The notes: a model not told the origin generated them from the letters alone. DNA of 63,031 nt, filler included, from Stramenopiles sp. TOSAG23-6 (GCA_900128565.1; 18 parts of 18 records of this genome joined end to end with filler, not necessarily neighbours in it), one strand, 5' to 3'. Positions 3,437-59,546 are shown, counted from the first letter of the whole stretch. Numbers and translations: made by a program.

Positions 3437-3480
3437 NNNNNNNNNNNNNNNNNNNNNNNNNNNNNNNNNNNNNNNNNNNN

Positions 3481-3492: not shown

Positions 3493-3549
3493 NNNNNNNN
3501 NNNNNNNNNNNNNNNNNNNNNNNNNNNNNNNNNNNNTTCCACAATACAT

Positions 3550-7132: not shown

Positions 7133-10100
7133 ATATTCACCAGTTTCCTCAACTTGCATTACTTTACACATCATTTCAAAATTCATTTCACCTGATCCTG
7201 TAGCATCAAATTCTTGAAATTTTACAAATGCAAGTTCTAAAAAGTCTACATCTACATTATTATCTGACTGGAATTTTCGCATAAGTTGTTTCTTTTCAGC
7301 TTTAACTACTGCCCGTTTTTGTTTATCAGATGTACCTTCGGCTTTTGTTAATAATGCACCAACTTTATCGGCTGCAGGTGGACCAGCGATTGCAGGGGGT
7401 GGTGGAACTCCAGCAGCACCAAAGCTTGGAGGAGGTGGGATCCCACCAGGACCAAAACCAGCACCTGGACCAACTGATGTTGAATTGAAGTCATGACGAC
7501 TAGGATCAGGATGTTTGCATAATTTATAAAATTCTTCATATGAAACTTGTCCATCATGTATTGTGAATTTTTTTTTTTTTTTGGTTTAAAAAAATCGTTA
7601 GGTACAACATTTCGTATGAAAAAATAATTAGATACAATATTGAAATGAAAACGTACACCATCCAAATCAACCATTTTAATCATTTCATTGATTTCTTCAT
7701 CTGTGATCATTTCACCCATACATATGAGACAATGCCGCAACTCTGCCGCACCTATAAACATATTTTTATCTAAATCTAAGAACCGAAATGCATCAAAAAT
7801 TTCCTTATCTGAAAATTCATCTGATGCTGCAAAAGTACCCTCTTGAATATCAGCTTTCTTTTCCTCAAGTTCTTCTTCATTTCTTTCCGCTTGTAACTCT
7901 GCTTCTTCCTCCTCAGCTTCTTTATCGATTCTATCTCGTTCATCAAATGCATCAACAAGGGGTTGTCGTTGAGGAAACGCAGCACCAGCAGGAGCTGTAA
8001 AATCAAATCTAATTAATAATTCACCAGCTGTATCCTCCTGACCCCATCCTCTTTTCTTATTATAAATGGGTATCCATTCTTCTATATAGCCTTTTTTGAA
8101 ATATGGAAGTAAACTGATTTTTTGTTTTCCTATTAAATCATCACTAGAGATCATATCTTCATCAAATACTTCTAATATTAATTCATATTGATCAACAATC
8201 ATAAATTCTACAACTTCATCCCACATTGGTTCAGTACCACCATCAGTATCCGTTTTTGTTCTCTTTACTTCCTTGCCTGTGTTTGCACCCTCTAATGTAA
8301 ATTTAATATAAGGATCTTGTCTACCTAATGAATCTGCATCAAATAGTTTACGTCCTTGTTTAGGAGTAATTTTTAATTTACCTGCAGCAAAAAATTCAAA
8401 TGCAAATTCAATTTCACCTGCATCTTTCTTTTTTTTATCAAATATTTTGATGAATTTCTTATCTCTTTGACCAACGTCCATTCTAGTATACGGAACTACA
8501 GATAATTCAGTTTCACCTATTAAATCATCCGCGCCCACATCTTCATCATAACATGAAAGTTTTAGTGGATGTTGCCATATTGTATTATCAATATAAAACT
8601 CAAACTCTTCCTCCTTAAAGTATGGATTCTGTCCACCATCTTTTATAGTCTTTCCCCGACGTTTAAATGTTTTATTTGAACCTAAAGAAAATTTCAAATA
8701 TGGATCTTGCTTCCCCCAACTATCCATATTCTTAAGATTTCGACCATCAAATGCAGTTAGAACTAATGTACCTTGTTTTACTGGTTCAAACCATATTTCT
8801 AATTCTAATTCTCCAGCAGGTTGCTGTTGTCCTGATTTCTTATGAATCCAAGTTAAGTCATACCAGTCTCTTTCTGCTTCTAATCCTTCAAAAAAAGGTA
8901 ACATTGAAATCGCCGTTTCCCCAAGTAAATCATTACTAAAGCTACCTTTATTCCAAACACGAAGTAAGAGAGGCATGTCATTGTCTTTTAACATATGCTC
9001 TGGATTAAATAAATTGAAAAAGCAAACTTGCTTTTTAAAATCAGGAAACATTGATTGACCTTTCACCACTTTTGTTTTCTTTACAGGTCCTTTTTTCAAA
9101 GAGGAAACTTTGAACTCACAAAATATATTTAATTTTTCTTCTTTACCTACTTTTGTACTTCGACCAGCAGAATGTTTATGAATGTCTCGTCCTTGATGTA
9201 ATCGTACCATAAAACGACCAGGTCGAGGGACCCAACTTTCTTGCATATCTGGTGGTGGTGGCGGAGGAGGTGGACCACCAACACCTGAAGCACCATCTGC
9301 TCCTGGTGGTGCAAATGAAGGAGGTGCCATAGTAGGTGGTGGCGGAATATCACTTGGTGGTGGTGGAACACCAGGCGCAGCTGTTGGCGGCGCATCAGGT
9401 TTTGGTGGAGGCGAACCAGGCTTTGGTGGTGCACCAGGTGCACCTTCTTTTGCTGCTACAGTTGCTGCATCTTCTGATGGCGGAGGTGCTGATGGTGCTG
9501 GTGGACGAGCTGGTGGTCCTGGTCTTGCTGGTGGTCCTGGTCTTGCCTGTGGTGGGAGCGGACGTCCAGCACCCACTTGGGCAGTCTTTGGAGCACTACC
9601 ATCAGGGGGTCTTTTAGATGGTGGCGGTGCTCGTTTGGTTGGACTACTAGGAGCTTTTGGTTTTGGCCTTGGACCAGGTGGACCAGGTCGTTTGGGTTTT
9701 GCTTGTGCAGCTAAAGCTCTTGCATTTGGTTTAGGTGGCGGCCTTGATGGTGCAGGTCGCTTCGATTTTGCTACAATTTTAGCTGCCATTGGCGGTGCTC
9801 TACCCTGACTTTCTAATGGTGCCGCTCCCGCTGGTGCCTGACTTTGTGATGGCGGCGCAGTAACTGGTGCAGATATTCCAGGTGAAGCTCCAGGTGGTAA
9901 AGGTCGACCTATTGCAGCAGATGGTAATTTCATTGGTGCTGCACCCTGAGGCATTGAGGGTGGAGGTCTTCTGCCCGCCGGACTTCGAGGTGGAGGTCTC
10001 TTTGTTGGTATCGTAGTAGTAGTAGTTGTAGTTGTTGGTGCAGCTGAAGGTGCAGGTCGTTGAGGGGGGAGCGGTCTTTTACCTCCACCTGGCATCCCCA

Positions 10101-28246: not shown

Positions 28247-29427
28247 TATCATCATTACATTTAGTAATAACTGAAGGATGCTGCATGGCTACTCGGTTTA
28301 AAGTACGATGTACTGTGAAATAATATTTCAAACATTTGATTTTTGAGTTAGGTACACGAAACCTTTGGATTTTCAAGAAAAAAAAACAATTTTGAAATTG
28401 AAATGCTGAAAAATATTTCAAAAAAAAATCGTTAGGTACGAAATTTCGTATGAAAAAAAANNNNNNNNNNNNNNAAAAAAATTGAAATTTGAAAAACGTA
28501 CAATAGCAGCGAAGCGCAAGGTCGCCCTTGGAGACGCCAAAAACATTTGAAGAACTGAAACAGCTGGAGCTAAATCACGTGGAGAAGCACCAGGTAAGGC
28601 ACAAATGCACCGAGCAGCTTCATAAACAACCAATTCACTCTTGTGCCGGAGACAAGATTCTAGAAAATCCATCAAGTGAGCTTCATTCACTTCTGCCATT
28701 CCTTGGTGCAATAATTGAGTGGCGTATTGCACAAGCTGATACATTGCCAATGGTGATCTTAACATTGAATTAGTTAGCTTCAAAACAAATTTTGAAACAG
28801 AAAGAATGTCACCCCTCCTAGACTCAAACAACAAACATAAAGCGTGATATTGTACCATGTCACTTGGCATGTTGAGTGCTTCTCGAATCTGACTAATCCA
28901 ACCACGAACGATGGAATTGTTATCTTTAGCAAGATGAAGACCAGCTACTAAGGATGCTGATGCTACCATTGGTGTCTTATCTACGATAGCAGACTGAAAG
29001 TAGCGCTCGATCTGTCCAAGAAAAGCAGAATCGATAATCTTTGATAGAACCCTAATAGAGTTAGCTTTCCGTAAGTCATCGTCACTAGTCATATCTTTTA
29101 CCAGACATGATATAACAATAATAACCTCTTCTGCAGAAGTAATATCTGCTATCTCTTTGATGAAAAGATACATCATACGTCGAAGGTCTGGATCGTGACT
29201 TTGGAAGAGCTTCGTGACACCGAAGAAAACATCAGAAGTTTCCGTCTGTGTAAATCTATCTCCATTGTAGAGAAGATATAACAACTCAGTAATTACTTGA
29301 CAACATCGTTTGGAAAAGGCGAGTACACTAAGTCCTCATCCTTCATCTTCAGCTTATCGCGCATACCACTAAACTCTTTCATGACGGAGTTCATTAAGGA
29401 ATCAGTCTGTTGCCCTGGAGATTGCAT
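28247..29427 (-). CDS. COPG: Coatomer gamma subunit, 5' part
   Basis: LLYLL..GDRFT..E..DVFFGVTKLFQS, LRHKSELVVYEAAR, LRFAAI|RTLNRVAM across GT-AT intron 28308-28501; apparent frameshift near 29315. Confidence 0.9.
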
Positions 29428-31988: not shown

Positions 31989-32622
31989 GTAGGTTCAAAT
32001 GTTATAATTTGAAAAGAAACACTGAAAAAAAAAATTTTGATTTTTTTTGAAAAATATTTTTTGAAAATATTTTTTGATTTTTTTTTTCAAAAATTTTTTT
32101 GAAATTTTTTAATTTTCTTTTTGGTTCTATTTTTCAAAAAATTTTCGTCACATTTTTTATACATATTTGTTATGTAATATGTTATATTAATAATCCTATT
32201 ATTATTTTTGTATGGACATTTCATACATGCTAATTTTATTCAAAACCAATGACACAATTTTTNTCCCNAANCCNAATNTAAAATTTTTATTTGAGTCTTT
32301 TGTATTTATTTTAATTTTTCTTAACCCTAACCCTAACGTTAAACCCTATATTTTTTATGNTACATTTGAGTCTGNTAGGAGTTCTTTTAATTATTTTAGG
32401 TTTACTTTTGTTTTTGTATTCAAATATTTTTGATCGTCAAATGCAGAATTCATGATNGNGTCTAGATTTTTTTNAAGTACGCATATATATATATAGAATA
32501 AAAACACACCAAAAAATATTGTCAATTTTTTTTTTAAATTTTTGTTAGGTACGCATCGAGTCAATCAATTAAAAAAAANAAATTCAGAATTTACCCATTT
32601 AATTTTTATTTTACCATGTTTA

Positions 32623-35235: not shown

Positions 35236-38165
35236 TTGGTTATATTGTATAACACAACAAGTGTTGTCGCAGCACCACCAGAAGCAAAAGCAGCACCAGC
35301 ACCAGAAGCAGCAGAAGCAAAAGCAACAGCAGAAGAAGAAGCACGAGCAGCATATTACGAACGCACATTGGAGTTTCTCGAACCGCTACGTGAGGCTAAG
35401 AATGCTCAACGTCGAAGAAACAAAGCAAAAAGAGCAGCACGGAAAGCGGCCAACACGATCCAAATGGCCGCAGCAGACGCAGCAAAAGCAGACGCAGCAC
35501 GAGCAGTACCAGAAGCAGAAGAAGAAGCAAAAGCAGGAGAAACAAAAGCAAACCCAGAACGTTTGCAAGCGTTCATCAATGGTCTCAAAGAAGTCTTCGA
35601 AAATGCTACTTCAGATGATATTCAACCAACTATGTGAGTTTTTTTTCGAATTTTTTTTTCGAATTTTTTTTTCATAGTAAATTTCGTACCTAACAAAAAA
35701 AAAATTTTGAAATATTTTTTAAGCTACATCGATGCTTCTGAAAACGTATTCGAAGAGATGAAAGAGGCTGTTTCTGGTGAATGTAGTTCGGAAGCTATTG
35801 TCCTCACTTTGAAAAATCATTTCGAAGAATTCAATACATTGTTTGTTTTTATCATTCATTTTAATTTCAATGTACAATTTTTTTTTACTACGAAATTCTG
35901 TCCAAAACTTTTTTTTTTTTTTTAATTTCAATGTATAATTTTTTTTTGCTGAAAAAAACCAAAAAAAACAAAAAAAACAAAAAAACTTTTTTTTTTTTTT
36001 TACTATGAAAATTTGTACCTAATTGTGTAAAAAAAAATTGGAATATTTTTCGGAAATATATATTGGCTCAAGGCAATGAAGAGAACAAGGAAGAGGAGAA
36101 GAAAGTCATTCTGGAAAAAGTCAAGGCTATCGCAAAAGGAAACTCTGGAAAATTGTATGTTTCTTCATTCTGAATTTTAAATTTATATTTATAGTTTTTT
36201 TTCATACGAAATTTTCATAGAAAACAAAAAAACATTGAGATTTTTTTTATAGAAGAATTAATTAATCCCAACATTTTCTTCCGTGTTTTTGATGTTTTTT
36301 ACTAAGTAGCGTTTCCGTCTTTTTCAATTGAAAAAACAAAAAAAAACAATCATTTTGTATTTTTTTTCATATCTTTTTTTTTTTTTTTTTTTTTTTTTTC
36401 ATACACTTTACACTAACAAAAATATTTTGATTGCATCAAATTTGAAATATTCTTTCATTATTCAGTTATGAAGCTATGCTAAAAGCCATTTTTTGTGATG
36501 CGCAAACGCTTATTGAAGAGTTGCATCAATCTACGACGCCAGAAGGAAAACCATCTTTGGCGACGATACAGGTACTGTGCGTCATCTATTATACATATAT
36601 ATATATATATATATATATTTGTAGTACGTTTTGTACTTAACAAATTTTTAAAATATTTTTGAAATATTTTTTCACAAAATAGGAAGGGCAGAGTAACGTT
36701 TTATCAAGAATTCATGGCAAGAGTGAAAGAAGCAGAAGCAACAGCAGCAGAAGCAAGAAAAGCAGAAGCAGCAGCACGAGCAGAAGCACCACCGGCGGGA
36801 GCACCACCAGCAGGACCACCAGCAGCACCACCAGCACCACGGCCACTGCCACATCCGGCGAATCTGCCACGCTGGAAAGACCCAGCAGAAGCAGCAGCAG
36901 CAGTACGCATTCAAGCTGTCTATCGTGGACACAAAGGAAGAGAAACAGCAACCGCCGCAGAAGCAGCAAGAGCAGAAGCAGAACGAATTGCTGCAGAAGC
37001 AGCAGCAGCAGCACACGCAGCAGCGGAAGCACCAGCAGCAAGAGCATTCTATGCTGTTCGACGAGGTCATGTTGGAGAAGTTGCACAACTTATCGCTGAT
37101 GGTGTTGATGTCAATCTGACTGATAACGATGGATCTACACTATTGTTTATTGCTTCAATGAATGGTTATGATGAAGTAGTTCAACTACTTCTCGGTGCAA
37201 AGGGAATTGATGTCAACGCGGTGAACTTTGATGAAGAAACCCCATTGTTAATGGCTTCATTTTTTGGTCATGTTGGAGTAGTTCAATTACTTCTCAATGC
37301 TGGTGCAAATGTCAATCAGTCAGATATCGACGGATGTACCCCATTGTTTAATGCTTCAAAGATGGGTTATGAAGGAGTAGTTCAAATACTTCTTGCTGCT
37401 GGTGCTGATGTCAATCAGGTTGATGAAGACGGATATACCCCATTGTATAAAGCTTCAGGGAATGGTCATGATAAAGTAGTTGAAGAACTTCTTGAAGCAA
37501 AGGAAATTGATGTCAATCAGGCTCCTAAAAGTGGATTCTGGAGTGGATATACCCCATTGTATATTGCTTCAGAGAGAGGTCATTATAAAGTAGTTCAACT
37601 ACTTATCGATGCTGGTGCAGAAGGGGAAATGAAAGGAGAAAACGTAGCAGCAGAAGCAGCAAAATCAGCCGCAGAAGCAAAAGCAGCACCAGCACCACCA
37701 GCAGCAGCACCACCAGCAGCAGCACCACCAGCAGCAGCACCACCAGCAGCAGGACCACCAGCAGCAGGACCACCAGCAGCAGCACCACCACCAGCAGCAC
37801 CACCAGCAGGACCACCAGCAGCAGCACCACCAGCAGCAGCACCAGCAGCACCACCAGCAGCACCACCAGCAGCACCACCAGCACCAGCACCAGCAGCACC
37901 ACCAGCAGGAGCACCACCAGCACCACCAGCAGCAGGACCACCAGCAGCACCACCAGCACCAGCACCAGCAGGACCACCAGCAGGAGCTCCACCAAATGCA
38001 CCAGCTCCACCAAATGCACCAGCTCCACCACCACCAGGAGCACCAACACCAACACCAACACCAGCACCAACACCAGCATCTGGTACGGGTTCAAAAGTTT
38101 CACACACTTATGTGCTAACTACTACGGCACTTTTGGGTGTTCTATCATTTGTCGCAATATTATAA
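35236..38165 (+). CDS. Ala/Pro-rich protein with IQ motif, about 6 ankyrin repeats and hydrophobic C-terminus, multi-exon
   Basis: IQAVYRGHKGR; TPLxxASxxGH repeats; introns 35634-35729 (CAT), 35841-36061 (TAT), 36155-36465 (AG), 36577-36682 (AG). Confidence 0.75.
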
Positions 38166-38707: not shown

Positions 38708-39638
38708 GTGTAGTATATTGTAAAGGGATTAACTTGACTGGAACTGATGGTAGCTGAGTTTCGACGGGTATGTATACGTCGTTACCCTCTGATCTGCTAA
38801 TATCAACATAGCAGTACGTAAACATTAAAGTTCCATCAGCAACCACTTTAAAAGAAACAACTTCTTTATATGAAACAGTCTGATTTTTATCAAGAACGAA
38901 CCTCGAGCTCAGTGGGTTGTTTTGACAGATCGGTGTCAACGCCAACGAGCCGTCAGAGAGCTTCAAGAAACTACATTGTGGCTTTGGTGGTTGTGTATTA
39001 CTATCGCTAACACAAATTACACCAGTTGATGTTGTACTTGGTGGAACGGCAATTGTAATCGTTGGATTTTCTTGACAGTTCTGACAATCCTGTTTCCCGC
39101 AACTGCACTTCAACGAAAACTTGGTTATAACATTTATATTTTTTTGTTTTACGTCATCCCTAGAAACTTTTATTGAATGTGCAAGGTTTGGTTGCTTTTT
39201 CGATACATCTGCTAACATTCCATTTTTAAATGTATAATGGTATTGATATATTTTGCGGTGTTGTGGTAATGCGAAGCAAGCTATTACCAAAATTGGTCCT
39301 TTTGTAAACAACTTCGTGTCTCCTTGTTTTTTACAAAATGAGTCAGCGGACGGTTTAATTGTTATTATCGGATATGTACTAAAGCTACAACCCCACACGT
39401 TAGGATCTGAAGCAGAGTCTATTTTGAATAATCCATAATGAATATTCTGAGGGATAAAGGCTAAAACATTTGTGCACGGCAAATAGAAACTTGTGCAATC
39501 CTTGTTTGAACAGAGAAAACCGGGAAGGTTAGGATTGTCGCACGTGCATGGAGTTAACACTCCCAAATTCGAACCACATACTCGTGATGGTTGAAGTTCA
39601 ATTATAATGGCTAGAAACAGGGGGAATAACTTCATCAT
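38708..39638 (-). CDS. Secreted Cys-rich protein, partial
   Basis: Signal peptide, many Cys, long intronless ORF. Confidence 0.6.
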
Positions 39639-39956
39639 AATCCAGTGTATTCTTGTGTTTTTACCCTATGATGTTCTTTTTTTCACAGCGTTACGGCTGA
39701 TGAGATCGATCGATCGAAATCCGAAAGTTCAAAAAATAATACCAAAAAGACGTTTGAAAAAAAAAATTTAAAAAAAAAAAAACACGAAAAATATTCCCTT
39801 TTTATTTTTGGAAATTAGTATTGAATTTCTAGAAAATAATGAAAGATAGAAACAAACCAATACTAGAATATGCTTTTTTTTTTCAACAGAAATAAAGCAA
39901 TTGTACTCTTTTTTTCAGAGTCACTCATCATTTCCAAAATTTTACGTAAAATTGAC

Positions 39957-41959
39957 TTAGAAGCTGGAATTCCTTCTGCGTCTACTTATGTTTTTTCCAA
40001 TTGCATGTATTGTGAAAAAAACAGGAAATAACAAAAAAAAATCGTTAGGTACGAAAGTTCGTACGAAAAAAATAATTTAGATAAAAATTGAAAAAAATAA
40101 AATAAAACGTACATGCACTTCAAATCCAATCGTTTCAACTTCTTCATGATTGAGTATATTTCTACCATCAAAAAGAAAAGCCGGTTTTTCCATACCATCA
40201 TAAATTTTTTGGTAGTCAAATTCTTTAAAACAGTCCCATTCAGTTAAAATTGCAATTGCATGAGCTTTCTTCATCGTGTCATATGGTTTATGATTTTCCA
40301 AAGAAATCATCTTTCGTAAACCGGGTACCGTTTCTTCAGTGATACCACAGGTGTACTTTAACTCTTTGAACATTTCTTCTTCAGTCACTTGTGGGTCGTA
40401 TACAGCAATAGTAGCTCTTTCGCCGAGTAATGCTTTAGCAATGTACGCAGCGGCTTGAAATGCAAAAAAATATTTGAAATTTTTTTTTTTTTTTTTTTGT
40501 TAGGTACGAAGTTTCCTATGAAAAAAAAAAGTCGACGTACAATAGCCATTATGTAAACATACAGTTTCTCGAGTATCGCCTGTATTTTTTTTAAATGCAA
40601 ATCCAAGTAATGCAATTTTCTTTCCCGTAACTGTGTTAAACATACTTATTTTGTAAAAAATATTTTTTTTTTTTTTGAAAAAATATTTTTTTGTTAGGTA
40701 CAAATTTTACTACAAAAAAAAATTTAAAAAAAAAAAAAAATTTGACATACTTTGAATAATTCTTTGAGAAAAACGATTTTTTTGATAATTATTCATTGTA
40801 ATCACAGATAGCCAATAGTCAGCAACTTCAGGTAAATTAAATGATTTACAAAGATATACCAAATTCAAAATATCTTTTTGAAAACAAGATCCTCCAAAGC
40901 CAACACTTGCTTGTAGAAAATTAGATGTATGAAAAAAAANATTTNAAAAAAAAAANTNGTTNGNTANGGTTGAATTCTCTAGGGTTAGGGTTAGATGTTG
41001 AGATTGAAAAAAAAATTTTAATTTTTTTTTTTAAATTAAAAATACGTCCAATACGTGGATCTGTGCCAATGGCATGAGCCACCTCAGCAACATTTGCATT
41101 CGTTTTTTCACACAATGCACTGATGGAGTTAATTGATGAGATCCGCTGTGCAAGGAATGCATTGGCCACTAATTTCGATAATTCTGAAGACCATGGACTA
41201 CAAAAAAAATATTTCAAAACAGTTTGAAATCGTTAGGTACGAAATTTCGTACGAAATGTTTTTTTTTGGAAAAAGGGGAAAATTAATGAATTATGAAAGC
41301 ATACACAATGATGATGTAATTATTTTAGCTTTGGGTACCCAATGCGCATAAATAGCACACAACTTCGCTATCGCTTTTTGTCCGCTGGGTGTTCCCTGAC
41401 CACCAATTAGAACTCGTGAAGGATTAGACAAATCGCGGATGGCAGTCCCTTCGGCTAAAAATTCAGGATTTGATAAAATATCGAAAGTGACACCATTCTT
41501 ACATGTTGATGATAAAATGCGTTGCAATGCGTAAGCTGTTTTTACTGGAACTGTAGATTTTTCAACCACAACTTTTGACGTTGTTGATACTTCTGCAATT
41601 TTGCGGGCCGCTTTCTCCAGATTTGTAAGATTTGAAGCACAACCAGCGCCAATACCGTACGCTTTAGTCGGAGTATTCACACAAACAAAAATGATTTCTG
41701 CATCAGCAATCTCTTTATCAATATTTGTATTAAAAAAAAGGTTTTTTCCACGTACTTTTTGAATAATTTCCTCAAGGCCAGGTTCAAATATTGGAAGTTT
41801 TTCTGAGTTCCAACGATCAACCTGAGCTTGACTAATATCTACAACTGCGACGCGGATATGAGGGCATTTGTTTGCAATCATTGCCATTGTTGGCCCTCCA
41901 ACATACCCAGCTCCAATGCAGCATATACGCGTCGTAAACTGATTTGATGCGGATGACAT
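39957..41959 (-). CDS. UGDH: UDP-glucose 6-dehydrogenase, complete, 6 exons
   Basis: [73 protein letters not shown]. Confidence 0.96.
40005..41304 (-). other. Five non-AG introns in UGDH: 41193-41304 (GT-AT), 40925-41045 (GT-AT), 40646-40750 (GT-AA), 40455-40562 (GT-AA), 40005-40112 (GT-AT)
   Basis: Removal restores ITSSL|WSSELSK, DPRIG|PNFL, IIQ|SMFNT, DTRET|AAAYIAK and FEVH|AIGK without indels against remembered UGDH consensus. Confidence 0.87.
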
Positions 41960-42287
41960 TATAAAACACTAAAATATTTTCAACTTTCTTGTTCAACAAG
42001 GACTTGAAGTTGATTGGTTGTTGATTGATGATTTTTAAACGTAGGTGGTAATATTTTGTTTAAAATGTTTTCGGGTTAGGGTTAGGGTTTGAGAAATAAA
42101 TNNNNNNNNNNNNNNNNNNNNNNNNNNNNNNNNNNNNNNNNNNNNTTAATTAATTAANNNNNNNNNNNNNNNNNNNNNNNNNNNNNNNNNNNNNNNNNNN
42201 NTTTTTTTTTTTTTTTTTTTTTTTTGTTAGGTACGAAATTTCGTATGAAAAAAAAATGTAGATAAAAAGTTCATGATGAAAACGTAC

Positions 42288-45400: not shown

Positions 45401-45811
45401 ACACAACCATACAACAACCTTCATGCAATCATCTCTTCTATGGTCACCCATTGCTTGAAGAAGCTTGCAATAACTTCTGATAGCCTGCAATGGCAACTAC
45501 TTACTAATATATTAATGATACATTATACTTTATTAAAGAAAAACTTAATAAAATCACATACCAATAAAAACCCATCCCAATACCACCCATCCCANNNNNN
45601 NNNNNNNNNNNNNNNNNNNNNNNNNNNNNNNNNNNNNNTTAATTAATTAANNNNNNNNNNNNNNNNNNNNNNNNNNNNNNNNNNNNNNNNNNNNAGGTAC
45701 AAAATTTCGTACGAAAAAAAAAAATCGAAGTTCCTACTGCAAATTTTGAAAAATCGTTAGGTACAAAATTTCGTACGAAAAAAAAAATCGAAGTTCCTAA
45801 TGCAAACATAC

Positions 45812-48040
45812 GTGAGAGTTTCGTGCAGCAATTGTTCTTTTTATCCTCAGCATTTCTCTGAACGTATCCTCATTACCATGACCAATCTCAAACTCCTGCC
45901 AAGATTTCCAAAATTCCAATGCAACACGAGGATCTGCGAATTGGGCACAATGAGTAAGAATCCCTCTAGCTCGATCAATTTCACCAAGTTTTCTCTCCAT
46001 TTCTGCATATCTCTGACACAAAGTTCGAATGCCAACGTCTTCAAGACCACTATCATCGCCTAAAGCTTTTTCGTATATATTCCGTGTTTTGTACACACCA
46101 TAATATTCTTCAACTTTTCGAAGCCACAATAAATATACTTGGAGTCTAGATTTGGAAGGTAGGATTCGCGAGGCTCTATCCAAAATGGACATGGCATGAC
46201 GTGTCATTCCATAAGTTTCTTCTAATTGAAAATAGTCAATATAAAATATAAAAGCATGTTCAACAGGAGCATCCGCAATAACTTCTTCATATAGTTCCCG
46301 GGATCTCTCTAATTTCGAACCATTATAATGCGAATTAAAATCTGAAAGATAAGACGTCCATAACTCTTTACGATGCGGCCAATCAAACAAAGATATTCCT
46401 TTTTCATAGACTCTATAACTATCTTCAAAATATTTATTCTCCTTCAAAAGAAGAGCATAATTCAGAACTGTGCGTACACTTGCTACCTTTAATGCAATCA
46501 TACGATCATAAGCATGTCTCGTAGAGTTCAAATCACCCAAATTCTCCTCTAAATCTAAACGTAATCTCCAGAGTCTTGAATTTTTGTGTAATTGCTTCTT
46601 GTATTTTTGACCATTTTCTAGATCTCGTCGATTGTGACGTCTCTGAGGTTCTGCAGTTGCTTTATGGACCAAACTTAAGGCTTTTGTATACGATTTATGT
46701 TTGATATGGCATTCAATCCAAGCACACCAAATACGAGCGAGGTGATCAGTATATTTGAAACGGACTTCTGTTGCTTTCTCGAAAATTACATCAGCGTTTT
46801 TTAAGTCGTCTTGATCAGAATAGTAGTGAGTAAAGTCAATCCAGAGGTCATGGGGATACCCTACAGCTTTAGCCGGATTAATTTTTGAGACACCTTCTGT
46901 ATAACACTCTACAATGTCGTACGGTGTATCATATAGCTTGACACGACTCTGCCACTCATGAACATTATGTGGGTTCTGACGAAGACGAACTGATGATAAC
47001 AAGATAGGTCTACGATCCATTAAGAGTTCTAAACGAGCTAAGCGAAGGTCAATATCATCTCCGAGCTCATCATTGCCGGAATCATTATCGTTACTTTTCT
47101 CTGCCACAACATCCATCTTGGCATGCAGCATTTGTTCTTCAAATTGCGCGTATGCTTCAAATACTAAAGAAAAATCTCTCACAGTCATCAGAACTGAAAT
47201 AGCTTCCTCGTAAATGTCTCTTGCTTTTGAAAACATACCAATTCGTATATAATAATCAGCGAGACTACACCATAGGGTTCCTACTTCATCAGAGAACCGA
47301 CAAATCCCAGCTCTAATAATCGCGTCGGCATCAAGAGAGACAATATGCGAAGATTTTGTGGACAATAAGTTACACAAATCCATCCACAGCTGGTGTTTAT
47401 TTTTCTTTTTTATTGATACAAATGTATCATCAGATGCAGCAATTGAAAGTTGTTTAGCGGCTTCATCGTATTGGCCAATGTCAAGGAGAAACTCAACATA
47501 ATCTTCCACCTGTTTAGGGTCAAATCGCATGTAGCGACGATACACGCGCAACGCAGTTTGCCATACGCCAATACTTTTGACCCATTTTACGTACAGCGCC
47601 CATACTCGATCGTGTTGTGTTACTGGCAATGCCTGTAGTGCTCGATCAAATGTATGCCGCGTGCGAGTGATTAGTTTTTGGGCTATGAGAAACTCACAAT
47701 AATTTGTCCACATACGAGGATACTTATGCATCGTGACCAAGGCACGTTCATATGCATTATTTGCAGCAGTAAATTTTTTGTGGCCTGGCTTTTTTCCTCG
47801 TGTTTCTTTTATACGATCCGTTAGATAACTGTTCCATAATTTATAACTTCCTGGAAGGTGTTTTACTGCCCGTTCATGTAGTACGTTGCGGCTCTTTGAT
47901 CCAGAGTTTGAAGATCCGCCCTTTTTCACACGCTTTGATCCAATATACGCACACCATTCCTTCACTGAGTACGGGTTCCGCATTAGAATATTTTCATAAT
48001 GCATGTCATCAGCAGTTGGCATCCATGACGAGGAGCTCAT
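45812..48040 (-). CDS. SYF1: Pre-mRNA splicing factor SYF1/XAB2 (first long exon)
   Basis: RNPYSVKEW..Y, LPGSYKLW, TRTRHTFDRAL..LPVTQHDRVW, LRQNPHNVHEW, HGNEDTFREMLRIKR; ends at a GTATGT donor. Confidence 0.93.
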
Positions 48041-48347
48041 ACTGCAACACGTCTAATTCAACAGCACCAGTACTATCTAACCTACCTGCAAGGAGAACGA
48101 GAGAGTCCATCGAAAAATTTCAAAGTGTTTTTCGCTTCGCCGCGAGTGAGGTAAAAAACACGAAATCCAATCCGAAATCTGGTACTCAAATATATGTTGA
48201 AACTGTAAACTACATCACGTTTGACACAACGTAAACTGAAAGATAGCACAATAAACTGAGTACAAATAAACTGAAAGATAGCACGGTTTATAACAGTAAA
48301 AAAGATTGGAAGCTGTTGCCAGTTACACCGAACTACCAGTCACATAC

Positions 48348-49185: not shown

Positions 49186-52100
49186 TCATTTTGATGTCAC
49201 TAAATGTAATTTTATCGTGTTTCAAAAGTATTTCTTTTATGTCGTCTGTTTTACAATTTAGTATATGCAATCCAAGTTTTTGTTTCTCTGGCCCATCCCA
49301 TGCTTTGGTTTGACCTGTCTGTTTATTACCTGAAGCGTTCCAATCAGCGTTGCTTTCTTCTGCATTGCCTTCTTCTCTCTTAAACATATTTGCTGCTGCA
49401 ATATTATTTGGTTCAACGTCGTCATGATTATTTGCTTCTCCTTGTGGTGCTGGTGCCACATTCTGCTGTGGTGTTGTATTTTCCGTCATTTTGTCTCCAA
49501 TAAGCAACGGGGTGGATCCTGCATTAGTATCCCGATCGACATCAGCACCAGCAGTGATAAGTTTTTCAACTACTCCAACATGACCATTCTGTGAAGCCTT
49601 CGACGCGCTGCTGATGCTGCCACCGCCGGGGCCGCTCTTCCCTCCGATTTTTTCGTTGCATTCGTTGAGTTCCTGGAACACCTCTTTGTTGCCACCTTTG
49701 TCCGGATGGAATTTACGGGCCATTAATTTATAGCACTCTCTCCACTCTGTTTGTCTCACGGGCTCGCAGAACTTTTTGAAGCAGTTGATCTTGATGCCAT
49801 CACCGCCGCCGCCACTTCCACCATCACTCGCATTAATGGCTTCCCCGTTTGTCTCAATTGAGGTGCTTTCTCCAAATTCATTCATCGCCTGAGCTGTGTG
49901 ACAATAGAATACCATGAATAGTACAAGTAATCTCGGCAATCTCATCGTTTTGAATATAGTATATTCAGAATAAATAAGGACGCGTTCGTCGATACAGTTG
50001 TAATTTCCATAGAGAGAGATTTAATAACAAATTCACTGGATAGAAACGCGTTAATACGTAACGCAAACGGTCCTTTTAAATTTCTTCGCTTCAAAAAGCA
50101 GGTTTGTCTTGAACAGACATGAAAACACACGTGTTTTCTTCGTCGTGTTTTTGTTTCTGTCCGAGGATGATGACCGATTTGAGTTTTTTGTAATATCGAT
50201 TTCTGTTATACAATTCCCACACATGCTGTATTCCATGGAGTAGCTAGGCCCTCACAAAATGCTACCACTTATTCCTTGCATTTTATCTGCCGCAGGATCA
50301 GTGATAGGGTTTGTGTCTCATTGGACGTATACTCAAATTAGTGGTTTGCGAGAAACTGTCCTGTCACTAGAAAATGCAGTTGTGAGAGAAGAACCAAGTT
50401 TCTGGAGTCAGTTATTCGAGCCTCTTGCAAAACAGTGTGGTGGGTCTCTAAAGACAATTGCATTATCTGCATGTATCGCGTCTGGGTCAGTCATGATGAT
50501 GTGTATTGGAACATGGTATGAGATGCGTTTATTACGCTTCTCTAATGCACAGCGGAAAGATTTGGAAAAAAGACTGGAGTCTCTACGCGAAATTAACCTT
50601 GCTTTGGCGAAGGACTGTGAAATATTGACGAATGAAAAAAAGAAATTAGTAGAAAAAGAAAACAGGTTAGTTCAAACGAGCAAAATTTTCCATGACAAGT
50701 CTTCCAAGATATCCCCACTCGTAGACTATCGCCAACCCCTGACGGTAAAATATATACAGAAAACCGAATGAACTAAGATTAGTGTTGTACGCATTGTGAA
50801 TGAATATAAGTATGGTCTTTAGTGAAATGTTTAAAAGAAATAGTTTTGTATACTATGAACTACTTCTACGTAATAAAAGGATTAGCTTTTTATTTTATGA
50901 ACTACTTCTACGTAATAAAAGGATTAGCTTTTTTTATTTTATGAACTACTCCTACGAAATAAAAGAAAAAGGATTCACACTTAAAGATAACATAATCAAG
51001 GTGTATCACAATACATGCTTTTCCCGTTACCCATCATATGCGTGGCAAATTCCTTATAATCGACCGTGCCTATTCCGTTAACGTCAGCAGCTTTCGTGAA
51101 TTCTACTACTTCCCCCTCTGTCAACGGATTTTCACCCATAGTTTTGAGTAGACTTCCAAAACTTTTTACATTTATTACACCAGGTGAACTCTCAAAAACT
51201 CCTAAAGCATCAATTATATTCTGAAGCGAGGTTGTTGGTTTTAGTTTCTTCATCATTTCTACAAAACTATTTTCATCTAAACTATCTCCTCCCATCATCT
51301 TTGCTATTGTTTCGTCGGAAGCTCCGAATAAAGAACCCCATACACCCTGCATATCTTCTTTTGTAACTTTCCCATCGCCGTCCTTATCGATAAAAAGAAA
51401 AAGTTGCTGAAACGTCTCGACGTCGGACATTTTAATATATGCTTTGTGGTGCGATGTAGTTTTGGTCAATGAAATGTATTTCGTATTTCCAAAGATATGC
51501 TGCTCGCGAGTAGCGCGCAAACGCAAACAACGGTCGACAGTTACTTTTTGTTCTTTTCCTTTTTCCTTTTCCTTTCCTTTCAGAAAATGAAAACCATGCG
51601 ATATTTCTCAAACAAGCATGGATTTTTTTAATATACATACTTAATACTACTACTGTTTTTAATGGCGGCAGTACAAGCTCTACAAAGAGGTGGGCAAAGT
51701 CATGTAGATTTTGGAGAATTTGAGAATACCATTTATGCTCAAGGAACAAAAGATCACGACAACGCTATTGCTGAGATAATTGAAATGCGACATTCACGAG
51801 CCGGAATTATTGCTGAGGAAGCAGATATAGACCATTCCCGCACTATTGATACAATAAATCAAAATAGCATTGAAACCAAAAATAATATAGATCTAAATTT
51901 TGCTGTTCGTAAAGAAAAAGTAAAGGAACAACTAGATGAAACCGAACTAGCTTCATTGGGTATGTTTACGAGTATGACAGAAAGTGACCTTATAGAACTC
52001 AATGAAGAGTGTGAAGAACAACTTCAAAGTGAAATTGCTATGGCAACCCAGATTTTCAAGGCTAAAAATGAAGCTCGAGAAAAGGCTGACAAAGAGTCTA

Positions 52101-55100
52101 GTGATACCAGGGCTGCAATCGCAAGAGATATAAAATATAATATAAAACAGAACTTAGAAGATAAAAAAATGAAACTTATAAAGTTAGAAACTTCACTTTC
52201 GAAGCTTAAGAGTAATGAAAGTAAAATGGCGGATATTTCACAAAGGTTACAAACAAAGAGAGCCAAGCAATCGCTTAGTGCGAAAATCAGAGCTACAAAA
52301 TGGGACATTGAACAATTACAGCAGAAAGATAAAGATGCATTCATGAAAAGTAGAGATATAGAAGTAGAGGCTTTAGTTAAATCACAAAATACTGCAAAAC
52401 TTCAGCTAGATCTTTTCACTGTAGCAAAATCAAAACTTAAGGCACAGGCGGCTGCTCAAAAACAAAAGCGGTTGGATCTGTTTAAACAATTCCAACAGAC
52501 TAAACAAAACTCCAGGAAGCAAGATGAAATGTTGTCATCATCAGTTAGGCAGCAAGATGAAATGTTGTCATCNNNNNNNNNNNNNNNNNNNNNNNNNNNN
52601 NNNNNNNNNNNNNNNNTTAATTAATTAANNNNNNNNNNNNNNNNNNNNNNNNNNNNNNNNNNNNNNNNNNNNTCATTTTGATGTCACTAAATGTAATTTT
52701 ATCGTGTTTCAAAAGTATTTCTTTTATGTCGTCTGTTTTACAATTTAGTATATGCAATCCAAGTTTTTGTTTCTCTGGCCCATCCCATGCTTTGGTTTGA
52801 CCTGTCTGTTTATTACCTGAAGCGTTCCAATCAGCGTTGCTTTCTTCTGCATTGCCTTCTTCTCTCTTAAACATATTTGCTGCTGCAATATTATTTGGTT
52901 CAACGTCGTCATGATTATTTGCTTCTCCTTGTGGTGCTGGTGCCACATTCTGCTGTGGTGTTGTATTTTCCGTCATTTTGTCTCCAATAAGCAACGGGGT
53001 GGATCCTGCATTAGTATCCCGATCGACATCAGCACCAGCAGTGATAAGTTTTTCAACTACTCCAACATGACCATTCTGTGAAGCCTTCGACGCGCTGCTG
53101 ATGCTGCCACCGCCGGGGCCGCTCTTCCCTCCGATTTTTTCGTTGCATTCGTTGAGTTCCTGGAACACCTCTTTGTTGCCACCTTTGTCCGGATGGAATT
53201 TACGGGCCATTAATTTATAGCACTCTCTCCACTCTGTTTGTCTCACGGGCTCGCAGAACTTTTTGAAGCAGTTGATCTTGATGCCATCACCGCCGCCGCC
53301 ACTTCCACCATCACTCGCATTAATGGCTTCCCCGTTTGTCTCAATTGAGGTGCTTTCTCCAAATTCATTCATCGCCTGAGCTGTGTGACAATAGAATACC
53401 ATGAATAGTACAAGTAATCTCGGCAATCTCATCGTTTTGAATATAGTATATTCAGAATAAATAAGGACGCGTTCGTCGATACAGTTGTAATTTCCATAGA
53501 GAGAGATTTAATAACAAATTCACTGGATAGAAACGCGTTAATACGTAACGCAAACGGTCCTTTTAAATTTCTTCGCTTCAAAAAGCAGGTTTGTCTTGAA
53601 CAGACATGAAAACACACGTGTTTTCTTCGTCGTGTTTTTGTTTCTGTCCGAGGATGATGACCGATTTGAGTTTTTTGTAATATCGATTTCTGTTATACAA
53701 TTCCCACACATGCTGTATTCCATGGAGTAGCTAGGCCCTCACAAAATGCTACCACTTATTCCTTGCATTTTATCTGCCGCAGGATCAGTGATAGGGTTTG
53801 TGTCTCATTGGACGTATACTCAAATTAGTGGTTTGCGAGAAACTGTCCTGTCACTAGAAAATGCAGTTGTGAGAGAAGAACCAAGTTTCTGGAGTCAGTT
53901 ATTCGAGCCTCTTGCAAAACAGTGTGGTGGGTCTCTAAAGACAATTGCATTATCTGCATGTATCGCGTCTGGGTCAGTCATGATGATGTGTATTGGAACA
54001 TGGTATGAGATGCGTTTATTACGCTTCTCTAATGCACAGCGGAAAGATTTGGAAAAAAGACTGGAGTCTCTACGCGAAATTAACCTTGCTTTGGCGAAGG
54101 ACTGTGAAATATTGACGAATGAAAAAAAGAAATTAGTAGAAAAAGAAAACAGGTTAGTTCAAACGAGCAAAATTTTCCATGACAAGTCTTCCAAGATATC
54201 CCCACTCGTAGACTATCGCCAACCCCTGACGGTAAAATATATACAGAAAACCGAATGAACTAAGATTAGTGTTGTACGCATTGTGAATGAATATAAGTAT
54301 GGTCTTTAGTGAAATGTTTAAAAGAAATAGTTTTGTATACTATGAACTACTTCTACGTAATAAAAGGATTAGCTTTTTATTTTATGAACTACTTCTACGT
54401 AATAAAAGGATTAGCTTTTTTTATTTTATGAACTACTCCTACGAAATAAAAGAAAAAGGATTCACACTTAAAGATAACATAATCAAGGTGTATCACAATA
54501 CATGCTTTTCCCGTTACCCATCATATGCGTGGCAAATTCCTTATAATCGACCGTGCCTATTCCGTTAACGTCAGCAGCTTTCGTGAATTCTACTACTTCC
54601 CCCTCTGTCAACGGATTTTCACCCATAGTTTTGAGTAGACTTCCAAAACTTTTTACATTTATTACACCAGGTGAACTCTCAAAAACTCCTAAAGCATCAA
54701 TTATATTCTGAAGCGAGGTTGTTGGTTTTAGTTTCTTCATCATTTCTACAAAACTATTTTCATCTAAACTATCTCCTCCCATCATCTTTGCTATTGTTTC
54801 GTCGGAAGCTCCGAATAAAGAACCCCATACACCCTGCATATCTTCTTTTGTAACTTTCCCATCGCCGTCCTTATCGATAAAAAGAAAAAGTTGCTGAAAC
54901 GTCTCGACGTCGGACATTTTAATATATGCTTTGTGGTGCGATGTAGTTTTGGTCAATGAAATGTATTTCGTATTTCCAAAGATATGCTGCTCGCGAGTAG
55001 CGCGCAAACGCAAACAACGGTCGACAGTTACTTTTTGTTCTTTTCCTTTTTCCTTTTCCTTTCCTTTCAGAAAATGAAAACCATGCGATATTTCTCAAAC

Positions 55101-58100
55101 AAGCATGGATTTTTTTAATATACATACTTAATACTACTACTGTTTTTAATGGCGGCAGTACAAGCTCTACAAAGAGGTGGGCAAAGTCATGTAGATTTTG
55201 GAGAATTTGAGAATACCATTTATGCTCAAGGAACAAAAGATCACGACAACGCTATTGCTGAGATAATTGAAATGCGACATTCACGAGCCGGAATTATTGC
55301 TGAGGAAGCAGATATAGACCATTCCCGCACTATTGATACAATAAATCAAAATAGCATTGAAACCAAAAATAATATAGATCTAAATTTTGCTGTTCGTAAA
55401 GAAAAAGTAAAGGAACAACTAGATGAAACCGAACTAGCTTCATTGGGTATGTTTACGAGTATGACAGAAAGTGACCTTATAGAACTCAATGAAGAGTGTG
55501 AAGAACAACTTCAAAGTGAAATTGCTATGGCAACCCAGATTTTCAAGGCTAAAAATGAAGCTCGAGAAAAGGCTGACAAAGAGTCTAGTGATACCAGGGC
55601 TGCAATCGCAAGAGATATAAAATATAATATAAAACAGAACTTAGAAGATAAAAAAATGAAACTTATAAAGTTAGAAACTTCACTTTCGAAGCTTAAGAGT
55701 AATGAAAGTAAAATGGCGGATATTTCACAAAGGTTACAAACAAAGAGAGCCAAGCAATCGCTTAGTGCGAAAATCAGAGCTACAAAATGGGACATTGAAC
55801 AATTACAGCAGAAAGATAAAGATGCATTCATGAAAAGTAGAGATATAGAAGTAGAGGCTTTAGTTAAATCACAAAATACTGCAAAACTTCAGCTAGATCT
55901 TTTCACTGTAGCAAAATCAAAACTTAAGGCACAGGCGGCTGCTCAAAAACAAAAGCGGTTGGATCTGTTTAAACAATTCCAACAGACTAAACAAAACTCC
56001 AGGAAGCAAGATGAAATGTTGTCATCATCAGTTAGGCAGCAAGATGAAATGTTGTCATCNNNNNNNNNNNNNNNNNNNNNNNNNNNNNNNNNNNNNNNNN
56101 NNNTTAATTAATTAANNNNNNNNNNNNNNNNNNNNNNNNNNNNNNNNNNNNNNNNNNNNTCATTTTGATGTCACTAAATGTAATTTTATCGTGTTTCAAA
56201 AGTATTTCTTTTATGTCGTCTGTTTTACAATTTAGTATATGCAATCCAAGTTTTTGTTTCTCTGGCCCATCCCATGCTTTGGTTTGACCTGTCTGTTTAT
56301 TACCTGAAGCGTTCCAATCAGCGTTGCTTTCTTCTGCATTGCCTTCTTCTCTCTTAAACATATTTGCTGCTGCAATATTATTTGGTTCAACGTCGTCATG
56401 ATTATTTGCTTCTCCTTGTGGTGCTGGTGCCACATTCTGCTGTGGTGTTGTATTTTCCGTCATTTTGTCTCCAATAAGCAACGGGGTGGATCCTGCATTA
56501 GTATCCCGATCGACATCAGCACCAGCAGTGATAAGTTTTTCAACTACTCCAACATGACCATTCTGTGAAGCCTTCGACGCGCTGCTGATGCTGCCACCGC
56601 CGGGGCCGCTCTTCCCTCCGATTTTTTCGTTGCATTCGTTGAGTTCCTGGAACACCTCTTTGTTGCCACCTTTGTCCGGATGGAATTTACGGGCCATTAA
56701 TTTATAGCACTCTCTCCACTCTGTTTGTCTCACGGGCTCGCAGAACTTTTTGAAGCAGTTGATCTTGATGCCATCACCGCCGCCGCCACTTCCACCATCA
56801 CTCGCATTAATGGCTTCCCCGTTTGTCTCAATTGAGGTGCTTTCTCCAAATTCATTCATCGCCTGAGCTGTGTGACAATAGAATACCATGAATAGTACAA
56901 GTAATCTCGGCAATCTCATCGTTTTGAATATAGTATATTCAGAATAAATAAGGACGCGTTCGTCGATACAGTTGTAATTTCCATAGAGAGAGATTTAATA
57001 ACAAATTCACTGGATAGAAACGCGTTAATACGTAACGCAAACGGTCCTTTTAAATTTCTTCGCTTCAAAAAGCAGGTTTGTCTTGAACAGACATGAAAAC
57101 ACACGTGTTTTCTTCGTCGTGTTTTTGTTTCTGTCCGAGGATGATGACCGATTTGAGTTTTTTGTAATATCGATTTCTGTTATACAATTCCCACACATGC
57201 TGTATTCCATGGAGTAGCTAGGCCCTCACAAAATGCTACCACTTATTCCTTGCATTTTATCTGCCGCAGGATCAGTGATAGGGTTTGTGTCTCATTGGAC
57301 GTATACTCAAATTAGTGGTTTGCGAGAAACTGTCCTGTCACTAGAAAATGCAGTTGTGAGAGAAGAACCAAGTTTCTGGAGTCAGTTATTCGAGCCTCTT
57401 GCAAAACAGTGTGGTGGGTCTCTAAAGACAATTGCATTATCTGCATGTATCGCGTCTGGGTCAGTCATGATGATGTGTATTGGAACATGGTATGAGATGC
57501 GTTTATTACGCTTCTCTAATGCACAGCGGAAAGATTTGGAAAAAAGACTGGAGTCTCTACGCGAAATTAACCTTGCTTTGGCGAAGGACTGTGAAATATT
57601 GACGAATGAAAAAAAGAAATTAGTAGAAAAAGAAAACAGGTTAGTTCAAACGAGCAAAATTTTCCATGACAAGTCTTCCAAGATATCCCCACTCGTAGAC
57701 TATCGCCAACCCCTGACGGTAAAATATATACAGAAAACCGAATGAACTAAGATTAGTGTTGTACGCATTGTGAATGAATATAAGTATGGTCTTTAGTGAA
57801 ATGTTTAAAAGAAATAGTTTTGTATACTATGAACTACTTCTACGTAATAAAAGGATTAGCTTTTTATTTTATGAACTACTTCTACGTAATAAAAGGATTA
57901 GCTTTTTTTATTTTATGAACTACTCCTACGAAATAAAAGAAAAAGGATTCACACTTAAAGATAACATAATCAAGGTGTATCACAATACATGCTTTTCCCG
58001 TTACCCATCATATGCGTGGCAAATTCCTTATAATCGACCGTGCCTATTCCGTTAACGTCAGCAGCTTTCGTGAATTCTACTACTTCCCCCTCTGTCAACG

Positions 58101-59546
58101 GATTTTCACCCATAGTTTTGAGTAGACTTCCAAAACTTTTTACATTTATTACACCAGGTGAACTCTCAAAAACTCCTAAAGCATCAATTATATTCTGAAG
58201 CGAGGTTGTTGGTTTTAGTTTCTTCATCATTTCTACAAAACTATTTTCATCTAAACTATCTCCTCCCATCATCTTTGCTATTGTTTCGTCGGAAGCTCCG
58301 AATAAAGAACCCCATACACCCTGCATATCTTCTTTTGTAACTTTCCCATCGCCGTCCTTATCGATAAAAAGAAAAAGTTGCTGAAACGTCTCGACGTCGG
58401 ACATTTTAATATATGCTTTGTGGTGCGATGTAGTTTTGGTCAATGAAATGTATTTCGTATTTCCAAAGATATGCTGCTCGCGAGTAGCGCGCAAACGCAA
58501 ACAACGGTCGACAGTTACTTTTTGTTCTTTTCCTTTTTCCTTTTCCTTTCCTTTCAGAAAATGAAAACCATGCGATATTTCTCAAACAAGCATGGATTTT
58601 TTTAATATACATACTTAATACTACTACTGTTTTTAATGGCGGCAGTACAAGCTCTACAAAGAGGTGGGCAAAGTCATGTAGATTTTGGAGAATTTGAGAA
58701 TACCATTTATGCTCAAGGAACAAAAGATCACGACAACGCTATTGCTGAGATAATTGAAATGCGACATTCACGAGCCGGAATTATTGCTGAGGAAGCAGAT
58801 ATAGACCATTCCCGCACTATTGATACAATAAATCAAAATAGCATTGAAACCAAAAATAATATAGATCTAAATTTTGCTGTTCGTAAAGAAAAAGTAAAGG
58901 AACAACTAGATGAAACCGAACTAGCTTCATTGGGTATGTTTACGAGTATGACAGAAAGTGACCTTATAGAACTCAATGAAGAGTGTGAAGAACAACTTCA
59001 AAGTGAAATTGCTATGGCAACCCAGATTTTCAAGGCTAAAAATGAAGCTCGAGAAAAGGCTGACAAAGAGTCTAGTGATACCAGGGCTGCAATCGCAAGA
59101 GATATAAAATATAATATAAAACAGAACTTAGAAGATAAAAAAATGAAACTTATAAAGTTAGAAACTTCACTTTCGAAGCTTAAGAGTAATGAAAGTAAAA
59201 TGGCGGATATTTCACAAAGGTTACAAACAAAGAGAGCCAAGCAATCGCTTAGTGCGAAAATCAGAGCTACAAAATGGGACATTGAACAATTACAGCAGAA
59301 AGATAAAGATGCATTCATGAAAAGTAGAGATATAGAAGTAGAGGCTTTAGTTAAATCACAAAATACTGCAAAACTTCAGCTAGATCTTTTCACTGTAGCA
59401 AAATCAAAACTTAAGGCACAGGCGGCTGCTCAAAAACAAAAGCGGTTGGATCTGTTTAAACAATTCCAACAGACTAAACAAAACTCCAGGAAGCAAGATG
59501 AAATGTTGTCATCATCAGTTAGGCAGCAAGATGAAATGTTGTCATC
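49186..59546. repeat. Three further copies (49186-52572, 52673-56059, 56160-59546) of contig 17644-21063
   Basis: Identical ORF translations; each copy bounded by the artificial linker; one fewer terminal 33-bp unit than the first copy. Confidence 0.95.

Follow-up and report, generated by a model that had tools for sequence, protein, structure and literature searches.

An introner-like element family underlies candidate GT-AT introns in unlinked genes of a stramenopile

The gene for UDP-glucose 6-dehydrogenase (UGDH) in Stramenopiles sp. TOSAG23-6 (GCA_900128565.1) is interrupted by five introns that agree best with homologous proteins when they begin with GT and end with AT or AA. Similar introns, copies of one AT-rich repeated element, lie in unlinked genes for an EF-hand protein, an MSP-domain protein, gamma-COP and a MAP3K-like kinase. 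All of these genes fall in what we call the window, the whole stretch of 63,031 nucleotides (nt), filler included, that was analysed. The window is not a single molecule: it consists of 18 contigs of 3,385-3,436 nt each, sorted by falling size, with 100-nt linkers between them (N44-TTAATTAATTAA-N44; 3437-3536, 6969-7068, on to 59547-59646). Genes and introns are interrupted at each of these linkers. The UGDH exon has its best homologues among stramenopile and plant proteins, and the source label GSMAST32.ASY1.ANO1.* on two public gene models that share exon sequence with window genes suggests that the organism is a MAST-3 (Nanomonadea) stramenopile. Coordinates of the features are collected in Table 1; here and below, a caret marks a junction.

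Spliced at these ends, UGDH would yield a product of 482 amino acids that is colinear with P0008 and P0009. Both are full-length relatives, with identities to exon 1 (218 codons) of 75% and 74%, respectively, and they fix the residues at the junctions, IITTNLWSSE, RIGPNFLKASVGFGG, TRETAAAYVAK and FEVHAIGK among them. Placement against homologues gives introns of 105-121 nt, with a GT start in all five and the ends CAT, CAT, TAA, CAA and CAT. These are the same ends that had been assigned by an earlier, sequence-only reading of this DNA.

Table 1. Positions of the UGDH gene, the introns described in the text and the splicing factor gene in the window.
Feature	Coordinates	Strand	Details
UGDH gene	41959..39957	-	6 exons, 5 introns; ATG 41959, stop 39957
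UGDH exons	41959-41305, 41192-41046, 40924-40751, 40645-40563, 40454-40113, 40004-39957	-	
UGDH intron 1	41304..41193	-	112 nt, GTATGC..TCCAT; GTACCTAAC box at 41240-41232
UGDH intron 2	41045..40925	-	121 nt, GTATTT..ACAT; holds CTAACCCTAACCC and seven single N
UGDH intron 3	40750..40646	-	105 nt, GTATGT..ATAA
UGDH intron 4	40562..40455	-	108 nt, GTATGT..TCAA
UGDH intron 5	40112..40005	-	108 nt, GTACGT..ACAT; no AG in the next 20 nt downstream
EF-hand gene intron	7656..7556	-	GTACGT..ACAT, within EF-hand loop (VDLDG^DGQVSYEEF)
MSP-domain gene intron	12885..12776	-	GT..AT, within MSP domain
gamma-COP intron	28501..28308	-	GT..AT (LRFAAI^RTLNRVA); AG 5 nt upstream of end
MAP3K-like kinase intron 1	11670..11546	-	GTATGT..CTACAG, AG-ended; related box CATACCTAAC
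MAP3K-like kinase intron 2	11160..10964	-	two full elements in tandem, GTAGGT..ACAT^GTAGGT..ACAT
MAP3K-like kinase intron 3	10931..10838	-	GTATGT..ACAT
Ankyrin/IQ gene intron	36577..36682	+	family member, AG end CACAAAATAG; placed by open reading frame continuity only
SYF1/XAB2-type pre-mRNA splicing factor gene	45800..48052	-	uninterrupted open reading frame of 751 codons

We scored the UGDH junctions with a hidden Markov model built from 105 homologues, taking all frame-keeping donor/acceptor pairs in a range of -15..+15 / -30..+30 nt (554-631 pairs per intron). The GT..AT/AA placements tie for the top score of 832.2 bits. The best GT/GC-AG pairs of introns 1-5 reach 824.8, 811.4, 826.6, 825.7 and 821.5 bits, at a cost of 7.4, 20.8, 5.6, 6.5 and 10.7 bits, and UGDH with the five best canonical pairs together scores 781.0 bits, 51 below the top. 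The public model P0005 stands at 703.6 bits. GT-AG is forced in this model; two conserved coding stretches are removed as false introns, and the model reads into intron 5.

The five junctions differ in how far they can slide. Intron 1 passes over an AG that is 5 nt upstream of its 3' end. Intron 2 cannot slide: placed as CG..CA or AC..AC, it alters one residue and scores 0.4 bit lower, and its best GT-AG pair loses the conserved NFLQA. Intron 3 has nine equivalent placements, including GT..AT and TA..AG, because an 8-nt direct repeat, AAGTATGT, is present at both junctions. Conserved codons for S-M-F make up part of this repeat, which may reflect a target duplication, an insertion steered by homology with the donor of the element itself, or chance. 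Intron 4 may be written GT..AA or TA..AG, and it encloses the element proper (40540..40460, GTACGT..GCAT); splicing at the element ends (GTACGT..CAT) would add nine amino acids, an insert present in no relative, and scores 14.4 bits lower. The sequence-only reading held that conserved protein is restored only if the introns run from GT to AT or AA. This stands for introns 2 and 5, but not for introns 1, 3 and 4, where a GT-AG pair is possible with one extra residue.

That reading also placed non-AG ends in unlinked genes, which is borne out in the EF-hand, MSP-domain, gamma-COP and MAP3K-like kinase genes. The Pfam profile EF-hand_7 is seamless over the EF-hand junction, with positions 2-53 closing the upstream exon and 54-66 opening the downstream exon. 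The MSP profile crosses its junction without gap or overlap (positions 2-50, two residues, then 53-100). For gamma-COP, whose intron contains one and a half element copies, GT..AT is the best of 771 pairs at 396.0 bits; the best GT-AG pair scores 386.2 bits and inserts VLH. The public model P0169 takes the GT-AG pair with this spurious VLH insert and runs into the next intron. AT-ended and AG-ended introns coexist in the kinase gene. There, GT..AG is favored for intron 1 (186.3 bits against 181.8 for the best GT-AT), and GT..AT for intron 2 (186.3 against 140.2 for the best GT/GC-AG) and intron 3 (186.3 against 174.1 for the best GT-AG). The two elements of kinase intron 2 stand head to tail with no exon between them. 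Removal of the first would recreate the donor for the second, so recursive splicing is possible. A PDB search with two kinase exon pieces found no match. Judged against homologues, removal from GT to AT would leave the encoded proteins colinear with their relatives, and the canonical alternatives score lower.

Across the window we delimited 18 introns, 11 of them by homology (five in UGDH, three in the kinase gene and one each in the EF-hand, MSP-domain and gamma-COP genes) and the remaining seven by open reading frame (ORF) continuity and family alignment. Their 3' ends are AT in 14, AA in two and AG in two. The sequence-only reading had counted about 28 introns (21 YAT, 2 YAA and 5 YAG), a split that is plausible and that we did not fully reproduce; about eight further candidates are cut by contig ends or cannot be placed. 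Junctions do slide as that reading claimed, and GT is the common placement, with all 18 introns allowing the GT start of a U2-type donor. The donor consensus is GTAYGT, with A at +3 and G at +5 in 16/18 introns each and T at +6 in 17/18. At the 3' end, A is found at -2 and C or T at -3, again in 17/18 each. The last exon base is T in 16/18, both AG-ended introns included. CTAAC, which conforms to the branch motif of U2-type introns (yUnAy), is present in 17/18, at 33-48 nt from the 3' end in 15 and at 60 and 94 nt in two; the intron at 36577..36682 is without an exact copy. The terminal AG expected of U2-type introns occurs in only 2/18. The claim of a U1-like GTAYGT donor, a CTAAC box and a YAN end therefore holds at the level of sequence, with N being T in 14 introns, A in two and G in two. 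Recognition of the last base, which the sequence-only reading took to be relaxed, may instead have been re-set to T.

Retention of any of the 18 introns would break the reading frame, through an in-frame stop in 17 and a frameshift in one, and 14/18 have lengths that are not multiples of 3. Intron GC content is 0.18, compared with 0.38 in UGDH coding sequence. Between the box and the 3' end, 13/18 introns contain no AG, and two more have AGs only >40 nt before the end. Exon and intron finish in the identical dinucleotide in 9/18, where about six are expected from base counts. An acceptor statistic based on ORF continuity was dropped: its controls passed too often (5-9/16, compared with 15/16), because the AT-rich 3' parts of introns are frequently open in two frames.

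What recurs in the introns is a single AT-rich element, GTAYGTTTT...RTACGAAATTTY-GTACCTAAC...TTTTYCACAATACAT, about 90-120 nt long and 18% GC, whose copies interrupt the majority of genes in the window. The parts of the element follow in the order GTAYGTTTT, a T-run, often TTCAAATTCGAA, then RTACGAAATTTY-GTACCTAAC, an A/T spacer, GAAATATTTTT and the terminus YCACAATACAT. The 9-mer GTACCTAAC occurs 30 times against 0.18 expected, and 0/100 shuffles reach 30. In an alignment of 24 copies, similarity opens at GTAYGT and closes at YAT, and the flanks are unrelated; the family and its exact limits are directly observed. Similar introns in unrelated genes, with similarity confined to the intron, are the hallmark of an introner family. 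The sequence-only reading had treated these as introns of unlinked genes. The genes are unlinked, but the introns share one repeated element, and the "dominant class" of that reading may be the footprint of one introner-like burst, not a general rule. Tandem or nested copies are found at 21164-21290, 11160..10964 and 28501..28308. The AG-ended member in the ankyrin/IQ gene finishes CACAAAATAG, and its relatives finish CACAATACAT.

The two ends of the element mirror each other. Reverse-complementing the 5' junction, AT^GTAT, gives the 3' end, ATAC^AT (ATGTAT/ATACAT), and a terminal helix of 6-10 base pairs appears in the minimum-energy or centroid fold of 4/6 copies, with fold z-scores that are mostly weak (-4.6 to +0.8). 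These inverted ends may be terminal inverted repeats with a 2-nt target duplication, an RNA helix, or the mark of a shared reader of both sites. Further inside, a 16-nt palindrome, RTACGAAA/TTTYGTAC, abuts the CTAAC box (e.g. 41256-41237, minus strand) and keeps at least 7/8 pairs in 14/30 boxes. Among the 30 boxes we found no compensatory changes in this palindrome; variation mostly breaks pairs.

Copies of the element also occur outside the window. An independent seawater RNA library holds about 167 contigs that match the core of UGDH intron 5 at 85-99%, have differing flanks, and again show ..T^GTATGT and ..ATACAT^.. borders. Copies carried by contigs of an independent seawater RNA library also end ..CCAT^GTATGTTTTTT and ..CCAAAATACAT^CC. 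Given contigs with such ends in an independent library, the AT ends are probably not an assembly error. A search of viral_contigs for the element pattern returned nothing, and a search of prokaryote genomes gave one match in a Bacteroidales metagenome-assembled genome, at about chance level by our own estimate. A search of metagenome contigs found 80 UGDH loci at 54-62% identity, none of this organism.

The pattern in the sequence is genuine and goes far past what chance would give, and the reading of its mechanism is partly supported. We consider it probable that the elements are U2-type introns of an introner-like family and that the spliceosome cuts them out at YAT and, less often, at YAA or YAG. 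Removal by the major spliceosome is favored because of the donor consensus, the distance of CTAAC from the 3' end, the Y at -3 and A at -2, the AG-ended members, and the SYF1/XAB2-type gene in the window. This gene, probably the "TPR" gene of the sequence-only reading, matches three Pfam families of Syf1 HAT repeats (498, 273 and 213 bits); its next intron (GTATGT at 45811) is truncated by the contig end. In the mechanism we propose, U1 and U6 would read the GTAYGT donor, usually after an exon T, and U2 would sit on the CTAAC box as the branch point. The 3' splice site taken in the second step would then be Y-A-T or, more rarely, Y-A-A or Y-A-G, such that the major spliceosome would tolerate U, and at times A or G, at the last intron position. 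Copies of the element would spread, introner-like, into (A/G)T^G sites. In this scheme we infer that the copies are excised from RNA, that the spliceosome does so, that CTAAC serves as branch point and that the element is mobile.

Several points weigh against this reading. Seven of the 18 introns were placed on ORF continuity, a weak basis in AT-rich sequence, and wherever an exon ends in T, homology does not distinguish GT..AT from TG..CA. UGDH introns 1, 3 and 4 and the gamma-COP intron permit GT-AG at a price of 5.6-9.8 bits and one to three additional residues. We found no clear target-site duplication, and mobility is suggested by similarity alone. A check for spliced RNA across UGDH, which the sequence-only reading had called for, revealed no joints: three seawater metatranscriptomes (5-7% of words shared) contained no spliced joint in the stretch examined, 38708-40939, where cover is thin. 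Moreover, the near-identical contigs that reach exon-intron boundaries are unspliced. One (record 6; 40047-40159) crosses the donor of UGDH intron 5, and another (record 7) extends to 40463, 9 nt into UGDH intron 4, where the repeat mask cuts the record. These contigs may be DNA carry-over or pre-mRNA, and the thin metatranscriptome data neither support nor exclude splicing. The X2 and X3 contigs that align to UGDH exons 3 and 4 were rejected; they are <90% alike and belong to UGDH of other organisms. Protein searches with UGDH exon 1 (among longer proteins) and exon 5 (among proteins of near length) returned no transcript product of the same species, the best matches being 75% and 66% identical.

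The parallel change at exon and intron ends could also be explained without a mobile element. In fission yeast the 3' AG is paired by U1, and a canonical-looking spliceosome in which a single RNA contact has been re-specified (through U1 small nuclear RNA, snRNA, or another factor reading both end bases) could shift the last base of both exon and intron from G to U. Exon positions -2,-1 are (A/G)T and intron positions -2,-1 are AT, as such a shift would have it, and the exon T is kept even before the AG-ended introns. However, a parallel shift is also expected from a 2-nt target duplication, and AG ends are still in use. Rfam and tRNA scans of the window gave zero matches, and so no snRNA match either. 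We regard an element-independent change of this kind as unlikely.

Ordinary GT-AG splicing at the nearby sites of public models, giving proteins with small indels, is more doubtful still. Pairs lie within a few nt in UGDH introns 1, 3 and 4 (one residue more in each, 5.6-7.4 bits lower) and in gamma-COP (three residues more, 9.8 bits lower), and P0005 and P0169 take such pairs. Elsewhere the same choice damages the protein. It would cost UGDH intron 2 its conserved NFLQA (20.8 bits lower), truncate the conserved AIGK tail at intron 5, and leave kinase intron 2 without a usable AG (46 bits lower). The nearest downstream AG leads to a frameshift in the EF-hand gene and to an immediate stop in the MSP-domain gene, as judged by eye and not by a scan. 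The five canonical UGDH choices together cost 51 bits, and 13/18 copies have no AG from box to end, with two more having one only >40 nt off.

About equally improbable, in our estimate, is excision by something other than the spliceosome, either from RNA or from the DNA of an expressed nucleus. Removal of this kind has been proposed for the introners of Amoebophrya, and ciliates eliminate sequences from DNA. The inverted ends would guide such a process, and GTAYGT and CTAAC would be mere family sequence. It draws on the exact reverse complementarity of AT^GTAT and ATAC^AT, on the terminal helix of 6-10 base pairs in 4/6 folds, whose pairing suggests cuts staggered by 2 nt, and on short direct repeats (T, AT, CAT) at the borders. 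This helix is very short, though, and its fold z-scores are weak; donor positions +1 to +6 and CTAAC agree with spliceosomal signals at each position, some copies of this design end in AG, and the conserved SYF1 gene is present. An element-free DNA or RNA form was not seen in the runs, in which cover is very thin. Three classes were set aside: U12-type introns (the donor is GTAYGTTT, the box GTACCTAAC lies at least 33 nt from the end, and U12 motifs are absent), Euglena-type nonconventional introns, and DNA elimination of the ciliate internal eliminated sequence type (no joined form was seen in the runs, with very thin cover). From Amoebophrya-type introners the copies depart in their terminal complementarity of ~6 nt, direct repeats of 1-4 nt and fixed GT..AT ends.

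An introner-like family of U2-type introns with altered 3' ends can be set beside several known systems. The U2 introns of hemiascomycetes have the form GTATGT ... TACTAAC ... YAG. Like these, the introns described here are short and have a strong GTAYGT donor, a CTAAC-type box, Y at -3 and A at -2; unlike them, they have T as the last base, the GTACCTAAC box at 33-48 nt from the end, and T at exon -1. U12-type introns have an (A/G)TATCCTT donor and a TCCTTAAC box at 10-20 nt from the 3' end, and the minor spliceosome tolerates varied 3' terminal dinucleotides. A likeness to U12 AT-AC introns is limited to the 7/18 introns in which the exon ends in AT, such that AT..AC can be written; in 11/18 it cannot. 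Introns of the tunicate Fritillaria reportedly have diverse ends (AG-AC, AG-AT) and donors other than GT. In the portion of the Fritillaria study drawn on here, the spliceosome copes with mostly non-GT/AG introns, with changes in U2AF and snRNA modification (PMC13326754). That is another lineage, and here donors remain GT and only the last base is altered.

Introner elements of Micromonas, Aureococcus and many marine protists are, as in our window, near-identical short introns in unrelated genes. In the part of the introner literature cited here, they also share with our family an AT content higher than that of exons, ends that coincide with splice sites, tandem or nested copies, and short direct and inverted repeats at the borders (PMC9860276). 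Donor variation mentioned in that part is limited to GC/GA, and the core sites given are GY/AG (PMC9860276), whereas AT ends 14/18 introns here, no clear target-site duplication is seen, and mobility is suggested by the likeness of copies. In Amoebophrya, according to the sections of the genome study used here, the majority of introns are non-GT-AG and standard gene predictors fail; these introns show no terminal dinucleotide pattern, and a subset of them are repeated elements with inverted repeats of 8-20 nt and direct repeats of 3-5 nt (PMC7789003). As far as those sections describe it, this subset resembles our family in having ends joined by inverted repeats, with short direct repeats over the borders, and differs from its fixed GTAYGT..YAT ends, conserved CTAAC and complementarity of ~6 nt (PMC7789003). 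Our literature search, which covered main texts and not supplements, found no GT-AT intron class described in MAST-3/Nanomonadea or any other protist, and the portions of MAST-3 genomics papers searched do not discuss the splice sites of these genomes. What would be new, then, is a main intron class made up of introner-type spliceosomal introns that end in something other than AG.

Few signals in eukaryotic gene expression are as constant as the terminal AG. We give an even chance to the broader proposition that a free-living marine stramenopile lineage has moved the last base of the 3' splice site as well as the last base of the upstream exon from G to U, that about three quarters of its introns are GU-AU introns of the major spliceosome, and that the change travelled with, or was enabled by, a burst of one introner family with reverse-complement ends. 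If true, this lineage would be a natural experiment on the reading of the final intron base during the second catalytic step, would offer a naturally re-specified contact of that step (5' G+1 with 3' U-1), and would bear on the question of which factors (U2AF35, Prp8, Slu7, Prp18, U1, U6) must change. The family would represent a new kind of introner that carries its own non-AG end, which bears on intron gain.

An altered splicing rule would also account for the wrong public gene models. Should such misprediction extend to MAST-3 assemblies in general, the proteomes predicted from them are far from complete and trophic inferences from "missing" enzyme families are unsafe; the gene sets of these uncultured grazers, and conclusions drawn from their apparent gene poverty, would need redoing. 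One study of such assemblies reports a small number of predicted genes, with too few complete protein matches for predictor training (PMC5778133).

Some further features of the window deserve mention. A long intronless Cys-rich ORF adjoins UGDH at 38708-39665 (minus strand) and runs off the contig end. Four contigs (17644-21063, 49186-52572, 52673-56059 and 56160-59546) are identical over 3,387 nt and may represent assembly redundancy or a multi-copy unit. The first of these has 33 additional terminal bases that overlap a near-exact 59-nt repeat of terminal sequence. All four carry ORFs of 296, 175, 203 (EF-hand) and ~330 amino acids on alternating strands, and the GTACCTAAC box is absent from them. 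Telomere-like (CCCTAA)2-3 / (TTAGGG)2-3 blocks occur within introns and intergenic sequence at 40985-41000, 42070-42095, 21755-21772, 22216-22262, 32320-32340 and 60315-60335; those inside introns provide a CTAAC.

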